Source: Candidatus Latescibacterota bacterium
GTDB taxonomy: Bacteria > Krumholzibacteriota > Krumholzibacteriia > WVZY01 > JAKEHA01
NCBI GenBank assembly: GCA_963707635.1
Contig: OY970173.1
Span: forward strand, 928,001 to 992,000
Length of the DNA: 64,000 nucleotides
Reading direction: 5' to 3'
Part shown: positions 1-3,051 of the stretch, piece after piece
Numbering within the stretch: the stretch's first letter is position 1
Layout: each line of letters opens with the position of its first letter
Made by a program: the position numbers and the translations under genes
The notes under the pieces: generated by a model
Told to the model about the DNA's origin: nothing
Databases searched by the model: none
The model's input: only the letters and a program-made list of their open reading frames with translations

Positions 1-67
1 CGAGCCCTTCCGCCCGGAGACAGGCAATGCGAACGGACCGGCATGGATGCGGCCCATGTGAACGGCG

Positions 68-97
68 AGTTTACCATGTCGCGAAGCCTCAAGTCAA
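68..97 (-). promoter_or_regulatory. Putative sigma70 promoter for a divergent gene beyond the left edge
   Basis: Minus strand reads TTGACT-18nt-TAAACT, with TG just upstream of the -10 (extended -10). Confidence 0.5.
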
Positions 98-191
98 AGC
101 CTAACTAGGCGTTTGCGGCGCCGGTATGCGAAGAGCTCCGCGACCCCGTCGGTCAGGCGCGAGCGGGTGGCGTCGGCAAGCCAGAATCACG

Positions 192-220
192 TTTACTCCG
201 CGTTAAACATGGCGTATAAT
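192..220 (+). promoter_or_regulatory. Putative sigma70 promoter upstream of the structured RNA and tkt
   Basis: TTTACT (192-197)-17nt-TATAAT (215-220) in otherwise GC-rich DNA. Confidence 0.65.
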
Positions 221-226
221 TCACAG

Positions 227-390
227 GCAAGTTCTCCCCGTCCGACCGTATTTCCGGACGGCGCGTAAGTCGGGAAACCGGACCACCTCCATCAAGACCT
301 CCTCTGGTGGGGCGCCGTTCGAAATACAGCGGGCGGGGGCGAGTTCCCTCCGGTTCCACCTCCCAAATCTCCCTTGATCACCCCCCGGAC
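227..390 (+). ncRNA. Candidate structured sRNA or 5' leader with anti-SD (CCUCC) motifs
   Basis: About 26-bp nested helix (235-244/330-339, 248-254/321-327, 256-264/312-320), a GAAA tetraloop hairpin (271-280) and a hairpin (283-310) with ACCTCCT in its loop; begins just after a good promoter. Confidence 0.5.
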
Positions 391-459
391 GGGCGGTAGT
401 GTCGGCCGGTCCGCTGCCGCACGATCGCGGTTCGACAACCTCCCCTTCGCTGGCAGGAG

Positions 460-2484
460 ATGCTTCGAATGGCACCGCTCGATCGACTGTGTGTCGACAC
501 GATTCGCTTCCTCGCCGTCGACGCGGTGGAACGCGCGAAGTCCGGCCACCCGGGTCTCCCTCTGGGCGCGGCGCCGATGGTGTTCGCGCTCTGGGACCGG
601 GTGCTCAAGTTCAACGGCGCCGATCCCGTCTGGTTCGACCGCGACCGCTTCATCCTCTCGGCGGGTCACGGATCGATGCTGCTCTACGCGCTCCTGCACC
701 TCTACGGCTACGACCTTCCCCTCGACGAGATCGTGAGCTTCCGCCAGTGGGGGAGCCGGACTCCCGGACACCCCGAGTACGGCCACACGCCCGGGGTGGA
801 AGCGACGACGGGGCCGCTCGGCCAGGGATTCGCGATGGGAGTCGGGATGGCGATCGCCGAGAAGCACCTCGCCGCGCGCTTCAACGTGGCGGGCGAACCG
901 CCGGTCGTCGATCATCACGTCTATGCGATCGTCTCCGACGGCGACCTGATGGAAGGCGTCGCCCACGAGGCGGCGTCGCTCGCGGGGACGCTCGGGTTGG
1001 GCAAGCTCGTGTATCTCTACGACGATAACCGCATCACCATCGACGGGTCGACGTCGCTCGCATTCACCGAAAACGTGCCCGCGCGCTTCGAAGCGCTCGG
1101 CTGGCACGTGCAGTCGGTCGAAGACGGCAACGACGTCGACGCCATCGAGCAGGCGATCCGGCGCGCGCGCGACGAGCGCGAGCGTCCGTCGCTGGTCCGC
1201 GTGCGCACGCACATCGGCTTCGGCAGCCCGAAGCAGGATTCGGAGAAGGCGCACGGCGAGCCGCTCGGCCCGGACGCGGCGCGGGCGACCAAGCAGAAAC
1301 TCGGGTGGCCGGTCGATGCGCTTTTCCACGTACCGGCGGAAGTGCAGGCGCACTGCCGCGCGGTCGCGGCGCGAGGCGCCGAGGCGCAGCGCGAGTGGAG
1401 CGGGCGCGTGTACCAGTACGGCAAGGAGCACCGCGACCTGGCGACCGCGTTCGACGCGGCGCGCGCCGACCGCCTTTCGAAACGGTGGAAGGAAGCGCTC
1501 CCGGTGTTTTCCTCCGAGAAGGCGATCGCCACCCGCGCGGCGTCCGGCAAGGTGATCAACGCGCTCGCCGCGGCCGTCCCGACGCTCGTCGGGGGCTCCG
1601 CCGACCTCACCGGGTCGAACAACACGCGCATCGAATCGTCGCCGGTGTTCGGAATTGAGCGCGACGAGGGGCGCAACCTCCACTTCGGGGTCCGCGAGCA
1701 CGCGATGGGCGCCGCCATCAACGGCATGGCGCTCCACGGCGGGGTCGTGCCGTTCGCCGGCACGTTTCTCGTCTTTTCGGACTACATGCGCCCCGCCATT
1801 CGCCTCGCCGCCCTGATGCGGGCACCGTCCACGTTCGTCTTCACGCATGACTCGGTCGGACTGGGCGAGGACGGACCCACGCACCAGCCGGTGGAGCACC
1901 TGGTGAGCCTGCGCGCGATTCCGGGGCTGACGGTGTTCCGTCCCGCCGACGCCAACGAGACCGCCGCCGCGTGGGCGTGCGCGCTGGAGTTGAAGGGACC
2001 GCGGGCGCTCATCCTGACCCGGCAGGCGCTGCCCGTGCTCGAAGGCGACCGCGAGATGATCCACGCCGGCGTCGCGCGCGGGGCGTACGTCCTCGCCGAG
2101 GCGGACGGCGGGAAGCCCGCCGTCGTGCTCATCGCCTCCGGCTCCGAAGTGCACCTGGCGCTGACCGCGCGCAAGGCTCTCGCCGCGCAGGGAATCGCGA
2201 CGCGGGTGGTCTCGATGCCCTCGTGGGAGCTCTTCCGCGCGCAGAAGCCGCGCTACCGGAATGCGGTGCTGCCGAAATCCGCGCGCAAGCTCGCGGTCGA
2301 AGCCGGCGCCACGATGGGCTGGCGCGAGTGGGTCGGCGACAAAGGCGCGGTCATCGGCCTGGATCGCTTCGGGGCGTCGGCGCCGGGCAACGTGGCGCTG
2401 GAGAAGCTCGGGTTCACCGCCCAGAACGTCGTCGATACCGCGCTCGTGCTGCTCAAGAAGCGCGCGCGGGCCGTGTCGGAGTAG
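460..2484 (+). CDS. tkt: Transketolase
   Basis: [30 protein letters not shown] (TPP-binding), GVREHAM and GEDGPTHQP motifs; start could be the ATG at 469. Confidence 0.97.
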
Positions 2485-2576
2485 CGCTTAGCCTGCCCGC
2501 GGTTCCGTGCTAGGCTCGGCGTCGAATAGCCGGGGCGGGCGTGGGTAATGGTGCCGAGCCCGTGTCCGGGCAAACG

Positions 2577-2993
2577 ATGAACTGTCCCATCTGTCGCAAT
2601 CCCATGATCGTCCTCGAGTTGAATCAGGTCGAGGTCGACCACTGCACGCGCTGCGGCGGGGTCTGGCTGGACGCGGAGGAGATGGATCTCCTGCTCGACG
2701 GCTCGGCCGGCCGCGCGGAGATTCGCGAGAAGCTCCTGACCGCCGAGCCCGGCAGCGGCGAGAAGCACGTCCGCTGCCCGATCTGTCGCCACAAGATGGA
2801 GAAGGCGCGTGTGCGGCGTCCCGGGGTGGAGAAGAGCGTCGTGATCGACCGCTGCGGTCACGGCCACGGCACCTGGCTCGACGGCGGAGAGCTGCAGGCG
2901 ATCGTGGAGCTGTCGCAGTTTCCGGAAGCGCATCGAATCCACGAATTCTTGAGCGCGATTTTCCGCGGGCCGGCCCGCGGCGCGCGCACGTAG
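2577..2993 (+). CDS. Double zf-TFIIB zinc-ribbon protein
   Basis: Two repeats: CPIC...VDHCTRCGGVWLD.EE and CPIC...IDRCGHGHGTWLDGGEL. Confidence 0.85.
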   Translation: MNCPICRNPMIVLELNQVEVDHCTRCGGVWLDAEEMDLLLDGSAGRAEIREKLLTAEPGSGEKHVRCPICRHKMEKARVRRPGVEKSVVIDRCGHGHGTWLDGGELQAIVELSQFPEAHRIHEFLSAIFRGPARGART

Positions 2994-3051
2994 CGCACGC
3001 AAGGCCGTTACCCACGGCCCGTGCCAGCACTGTCTGAAAAAGGAGTCCTAC

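Follow-up and report, generated by a model that had tools for sequence, protein, structure and literature searches.

Repression of a porin by a small RNA acting in trans is known from pairs such as MicF/ompF. The VrrA RNA of Vibrio cholerae, which acts on ompA, is another such repressor, described as working without a strict need for Hfq in a report that also names MicA, RybB and RseX (PMC2628432). In Acinetobacter baumannii, Aar, a small RNA of ~100 nt, sequesters the ribosome-binding site (RBS) of the carO mRNA, which encodes an outer-membrane protein, by means of a conserved seed; this seed is 9 nt long and has four targets (PMC11472050). A different type of RNA is represented by the cuckoo RNAs of Alphaproteobacteria, which consist of 2-4 adjacent hairpins with CCUCCUCCC in each loop and which have variable stems and no multiloop (PMC4615179).

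The locus described here lies in a 64,000-nucleotide stretch of DNA (the window) from a Krumholzibacteriia genome, G000, which is assembled as a single contig of 3.2 Mb and is 96% complete. It consists of an RNA element upstream of the transketolase gene tkt, and its features, in window positions, are as follows.

192-220, plus strand: sigma-70-type promoter P1 of the small RNA, TTTACT-17-TATAAT, recognized in the sequence
227-345, plus strand: conserved core of the small RNA, from homolog alignment and folding, with its start placed ~7 nt past the -10 box
235-264, plus strand: 5' strand of the rod, with helices P1a (235-244), P1b (248-254) and P1c (256-264), from helix pairing and homologs
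271-280, plus strand: hairpin P2 with a GNAA tetraloop (GNAA in 19/21 homologs, ACAA in 2/21)
283-310, plus strand: hairpin P3 (CCACC/GGUGG), with a loop of 16-23 nt among homologs
296-311, plus strand: invariant 16-nt seed, made of 10 loop nucleotides, the 3' strand of P3 and one G; complement of the barrel-gene RBS
312-339, plus strand: 3' strand of the rod, from helix pairing and homologs
346-373, plus strand: variable C-rich tail, without an intrinsic terminator in G000; many homologs have a hairpin and U-run here
374-402, plus strand: promoter P2, TTGATC-17-TAGTGT, predicted for tkt; contains GATCACCCCCC
469-2484, plus strand: the neighboring gene tkt, with its Shine-Dalgarno sequence (SD) GGAG at 456-459 and its start placed at 469

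In its organization, the element resembles the VrrA class, being a stand-alone small RNA of 100-140 nt that is encoded away from its target and is predicted to pair where translation of the mRNA for an outer-membrane barrel is initiated. Among the features of this class of repressors, we found an own promoter in 21/21 homologs, a target 461 kb away, a 16-nt seed match in 14/14 orthologs of the target within the genus, and a target that a structure model and a fold search predict to be a barrel. Unlike MicA, RybB and VrrA, it has a sigma-70-type rather than a sigma-E promoter, its host gave no hit for Hfq or ProQ, and it has no sequence or Rfam relation to them; further differences from the porin-repressing small RNAs are its perfect 16-nt seed, of which one half lies in a loop and the other is locked into a helix carried by a long invariant rod, its PopA-like target and its host, which belongs to an uncultured genus of the Krumholzibacteriia. 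Compared with Aar, the seed is longer and perfect, and there is one clear mRNA partner. A C-rich motif resembling the anti-SD in a hairpin loop is shared with the cuckoo RNAs; in contrast to the cuckoo RNAs, there is a single conserved motif of different sequence, the stems and rod are nearly invariant, a three-way junction is present and the host is of another phylum.

A previous sequence-only reading of this DNA had described the promoter, the rod, the three-way junction, a CGG-GAAA-CCG hairpin and an ACCUCCU loop, and all of these were found at their places with complete pairing (235-244/330-339, 10/10; 248-254/321-327, 7/7; 256-264/312-320, 9/9; 271-273/278-280, 3/3; 283-287/306-310, 5/5). 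TTTACT-17-TATAAT sites are expected 0.1 times in shuffled sequences, and a TTTAC-N-17-TATA(A/C)T promoter with a 17-nt spacer lies upstream of the RNA in every distinct homolog; the element would be transcribed from about position 227, as judged from the sequence. The segment 227-345 folds clearly beyond its shuffles (z -3.69, with 0/200 shuffles as good), and 227-390 only modestly so (z -1.77, 11/200). The same reading had extended the element to 390, further than the conservation, which ends near 343. It had also stressed repeated CCTCC motifs: copies do start at 286, 298, 347 and 359, as well as at 439, and five within 160 nt occur in only 5 places of the genome. Nevertheless, only the copy at 297-303 is conserved, within the 16-nt gene-specific seed, and the copies at 347 and 359 lost their standing as a signal, with 13/21 homologs having none in the 60 nt past the rod.

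The element is single-copy in G000, where the only other match is the opposite strand of the same rod. Among the nine homologs chosen for folding with their tails, seven end in a strong hairpin and U-run; the RNA of G000 has no intrinsic terminator, only the C-rich tail. The genome encodes Rho and, in addition to the canonical rho, has a second Rho-like gene (G000:C1:195951-197027) that scores 401 bits, under the TIGR00767 cut-off. Three metatranscriptome contigs cover the element (244-343, 236-398 and 271-526), all of low depth and unstranded, with DNA as a possible source, and window positions 1-200 have no RNA cover in three metatranscriptome runs, for which the data are sparse. Just left of the window lies a divergent gene (L001:7270-7980, minus strand), whose 236-aa product is secreted and has a WGxVKALYR-type motif at its end; such a gene adjoins the RNA in several relatives, and the promoter-like site of this gene is found at window positions 97-68.

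DNA and covariance-model searches identified the element in 13/17 genomes of one Krumholzibacteriia genus, G000 counted. The four misses can be attributed to assembly, since no tkt was found in G003 and G006 and the 5' side of tkt is cut off in G010 and G011. No homolog was found by the covariance model in 19 other genomes of the order (104 candidates per genome scored), nothing for the RNA rose above noise at 11 tkt loci of other genera searched with filters off, and viral contigs gave 0 matches. Three weak DNA matches in other genera map outside the element and were rejected as homologs. A metagenome scan, in which the pattern left the loop free, recovered 11 loci, all with the identical 10 loop bases; eight of these are new sequences, leading to a total of 21 distinct homologs for the comparisons. 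Across these, the 28 counted pairs are kept in 97.8% of cells, and only one of the 28 shows a two-sided change. Covariation in the rod does not reach significance (97-103 of 500 shuffles score as high), and the structure therefore rests on conservation, G-U pairs and energy. The 5' half of the P3 loop is variable and its 3' half invariant, and the invariance begins exactly at the start of the complement to the target.

The suggestion that the RNA is unannotated, acts in trans and exposes an anti-SD loop is supported, and the Rfam check proposed with it matched no known family: Rfam 15 gave 0 matches at E up to 10 for window positions 1-3000, and 0 at the gathering score for three homologous loci. 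As candidates, 6S RNA and SRP RNA were rejected, since G000 has each of them at another locus with a score above cut-off. In the literature searched, we found no description of the element. It is best read as an uncatalogued, genus-specific, stand-alone small-RNA gene.

A search of the genome against itself turned up a perfect match of 16 nt that coincides with the invariant segment. It reads CCCACCAGAGGAGGTC on the other strand (G000:C1:1389291-1389306) and lies at -22 to -7 relative to the ATG of a gene whose 429-aa product begins with what resembles a signal peptide. Leaving aside the antisense strand of the RNA itself, this perfect complement is unique in the genome, other G000 sites covering the anti-SD reach 12 nt at most, and, again after the own antisense strand, the target is the best of 1155 prefiltered sites (-37.9 vs -33.5 kcal/mol for the next).

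Orthologs of this gene are present in 31/36 genomes, and 30 loci were read. The site is perfect in each of the 14 orthologs of the genus and matches over 7-10 nt in 15/15 scored orthologs of other genera, which come from genera where the RNA was not found; one more had no start found. Around this invariant site, the genus shows variation both in the sequence preceding the leader stem and in the distance from SD to ATG (3-6 nt). At the level of the phylum, the 15-mer of the seed occurs in 12/151 genomes. All 12 belong to this genus, and the RNA and the target are the sole sites of the 15-mer: both carry it in nine genomes, and one of the two does in three incomplete assemblies. There is no compensatory change inside the seed. 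As the RNA and target sides are both invariant, co-evolution rests on presence and absence in a single clade, that is, on one evolutionary event. Part of the site would be conserved in any case: the SD core is common to all orthologs, the CCC of the site is paired within the leader itself, and in sister genera the differences are limited to the linker, where they amount to 1-3 bases or a 1-base gap. A covarying seed was not found in sister genera, where G018-G022 each hold the barrel RBS once, with no second antisense copy (wobble-pattern loci in G018 and G020 left out). Just 5' of the seed, pairing is inconsistent: it extends in G007, G013 and G014 and has a second-position mismatch in G002, G005 and G016.

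The energy of the hybrid plus that of opening, calculated with a custom RNAup-like script over ten windows, ranges from -16.9 to -25.0 kcal/mol in the 11/11 genomes with both partners, and from -5.2 to -14.4 kcal/mol for the G000 RNA on 15 leaders of other genera. The central loop bases are predicted to be largely unpaired in most homologs. Whole-molecule cofolding yields only -0.9 to -5.3 kcal/mol in 6/11 genomes, and the minimum free energy structure in G000 lacks the duplex; this calculation cannot draw pairing that nucleates in a loop, and it shows that opening P3 is costly.

The G000 protein itself has no Pfam match and no PDB sequence match, while PF13505 matches 23/104 of its relatives. 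Its look-alikes in the Atlas are mostly unnamed, one cluster having PF13505 on 16% of its members. A structure model built from the 104 sequences gave a long-stranded beta-barrel (mean pLDDT 83, pTM 0.80), with the closest fold being that of the pentameric outer-membrane protein A (PopA) of Bdellovibrio (E 1e-12, TM 0.58-0.60). On the basis of this model, the target is predicted to be a PopA-like outer-membrane beta-barrel. PopA is described as the major outer-membrane protein of Bdellovibrio (PMC12228718), and the likeness to it, together with the very strong SD of the gene, suggests that the target is likely the major outer-membrane protein or porin of the host. The leader of the gene (G000:C1: about 1389100-1389312) is long, conserved and structured, with ~210 nt here and more than 300 nt in most relatives (compared at loci L084, about 1100-1312, for G000, L086-L097 and L114); that of G000 is without a ~90-nt block, kept by other members of the genus, that holds an internal SD-like hairpin. 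No Rfam family matched the leader above threshold, with two weak sub-threshold hits only.

Given that a 16-base segment of the RNA is perfectly complementary to the barrel RBS, the RNA likely shuts off barrel synthesis instead of controlling tkt, and we consider it quite probable that 227-345 represses translation of the distant PopA-like barrel gene by base pairing in trans. In such a mechanism, pairing would begin between the ten loop bases and the SD of the target, after which the target's CCACC, identical to the 5' strand of P3 in the RNA, could displace that strand at little net cost. The duplex would then extend to 16-19 bp over the whole RBS and block 30S loading without Hfq or ProQ, and RNase III, which is present in the genome, may clear it. 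Hfq, ProQ and CsrA gave no hit in the 96% complete G000, an absence that a long perfect seed fits. The sequence invariance of the rod, which extends to both of its strands, is not explained by this trans-repression model.

A 12-nt scan showed a third conserved site, which belongs to a second non-coding RNA.

G000:C1: about 1218054-1218259 (L115:955-1160), minus strand: second RNA, ~205 nt, with its own promoter and terminator

This RNA is divergent from a LysR gene, lies upstream of a gene with an FGE domain, and is found in 15/17 genomes of the genus. It folds far beyond its shuffles (z -4.16), has no Rfam match and carries two invariant segments, one purine-rich and one C-rich. Just before its terminator, 12 nt are common with the barrel RBS, so that 13 bp are possible with the seed (window 300-312). 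Two metatranscriptome contigs lie over it in one of three runs, the data being sparse. Known analogues are GcvB/SroC among sponges and OxyS among small RNAs divergent from a LysR gene; as with these, the second RNA can pair with the seed, through the 12 nt that it shares with the target RBS, but, unlike those sponges, it is more widely distributed than the RNA that it would sponge. The segment is kept in G019, G022 and G023, where the seed was not found, which indicates that the second RNA is probably the older of the two and acts on targets of its own. Either RNA may be a sponge for the other.

One could go further and regard the element as a sponge for which the older LysR-divergent RNA is the main partner, with the match to the barrel gene being secondary. 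The 13-nt perfect complement to an invariant segment of the second RNA, the folding of the latter and its retention without the seed, pointing to a function of its own, all fit this idea. Nonetheless, the predicted energy of this pairing is far less favorable, at -6.5 to -12.7 kcal/mol across 9 genomes, as the site overlaps the terminator stem of the second RNA, and seed bases 296-297 pair with the barrel-gene site only, so that a sponge role leaves their invariance without explanation. We therefore regard it as unlikely that sponging is the main role.

A related question is whether the loop alone could act in the manner of cuckoo RNAs, as a general anti-SD RNA that dampens many mRNAs with strong SDs and has the barrel gene as its strongest target. 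The loop matches the anti-SD of the G000 16S rRNA and, as described above, its central bases are largely unpaired; in addition, 35 RBS-like sites offer 7-9 bp, and loop-only pairing to foreign leaders reaches about -14 kcal/mol. Since an anti-SD pairs with any strong SD, a decoy control was run. Over the 35 RBS-like AGGAGGT sites, the target reaches 16 nt and the next best 9 nt, and decoy seeds with the anti-SD core kept and the flanks shuffled reached at least 16 nt in 86/50000 trials; with the same type of decoy on all 374 sites, 127/5000 did so. There is also just one conserved motif, set in the longer 16-nt seed, which is where the proposed likeness to the cuckoo RNAs breaks down, and the invariance reaches past the anti-SD to bases that fit one gene. 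Although a purely general action thus appears very unlikely, some anti-SD action of this kind would be compatible with repression of the barrel gene, the two not being exclusive.

The genomic position suggests yet another role, as a cis leader of tkt, also put forward in the sequence-only reading, or as an attenuator or riboswitch of that gene, in which formation of the P1 helix would choose between terminator and antiterminator or mask the tkt SD. The RNA is directly upstream of tkt in 11/12 genomes with the downstream DNA assembled, one of the RNA contigs begins at 271 and continues into tkt, no intrinsic terminator is present in G000, and in six homologs (L005, L009, L010, L011, L013 and L049) the terminator arms just after the rod resemble the two P1a strands, making an alternative pairing possible. 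However, in equilibrium folding P1a dominates, being formed with a probability of 0.75-1.00 in 9/9 folded homologs. Moreover, tkt has its own promoter: the boxes and spacing of P2 are conserved in 19/21 loci, the exceptions being a contig end and G002, and in genera without the RNA, similar promoters were recognized by eye before tkt. The RNA of G002, which is intact, and the strong terminator after it point toward a gene on the opposite strand; tkt is 1.6 kb away and is preceded by this type of promoter as well. The predicted pairing of the RNA to the tkt RBS is unfavorable (+1.2 kcal/mol), no Rfam riboswitch matched, and the 16-nt match in trans would go unexplained. Based on the separate promoter, the arrangement in G002 and the RBS pairing, we hold a role of the element as a tkt leader to be highly improbable.

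Around tkt, the SD GGAG was located where it had been expected, and the start is probably the ATG at 469 and not that at 460, considering that no spacer separates GGAG from the first ATG and that, in a close relative (L051), only the second is found. The 16S-like GATCACCCCCC is indeed present at 376-386, yet it lies across the -35 box and the spacer in the tkt promoter, with only its TTGA core conserved, so the resemblance to the 16S 3' end lost its meaning as a further anti-SD element. In G018 (L075), of a sister genus, a P1-type promoter lies ~300 nt before tkt; the 250 nt after this promoter are non-coding, lack the seed and look unrelated.

That there is no functional RNA, and that the element is a conserved DNA inverted repeat or the SD of a small gene on the minus strand, is hardly credible: the stems are invariant almost without compensatory change and the minus strand in G000 does read as a strong SD followed by an ATG, but the conserved G-U pairs and the GNAA tetraloop fit a plus-strand RNA and the promoter points into the element in 21/21 homologs. 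A minus-strand peptide was rejected, with an ATG start in 2/21 homologs, no start in 2/21, and differing frames and lengths in the rest.

Returning to repression of the barrel gene by the RNA, the two small RNAs and the target could be part of a chaperone-free switch of three RNAs, a scheme that we put forward as tentative and rather doubtful. In it, the barrel RBS would be locked by toehold strand displacement, the second RNA, under LysR control and with its 12-nt copy of the site, would titrate the first and turn the barrel on, and the rod would offer a grip to an RNA-binding protein taking the place of Hfq and ProQ in the phylum. If the LysR-controlled mimic RNA is a real partner, it would add a sponge layer to the control of the barrel gene.

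The pair of small RNA and target was identified from genomes alone in an uncultured phylum, for which no small-RNA work was found in the literature searched. In this pair, an otherwise generic anti-SD would gain its specificity from a long and perfect seed, one half of which is concealed in a helix. The finding suggests that an RBS-blocking RNA has evolved once more to control the main barrel, in a lineage remote from the Proteobacteria and without Hfq, ProQ or CsrA.
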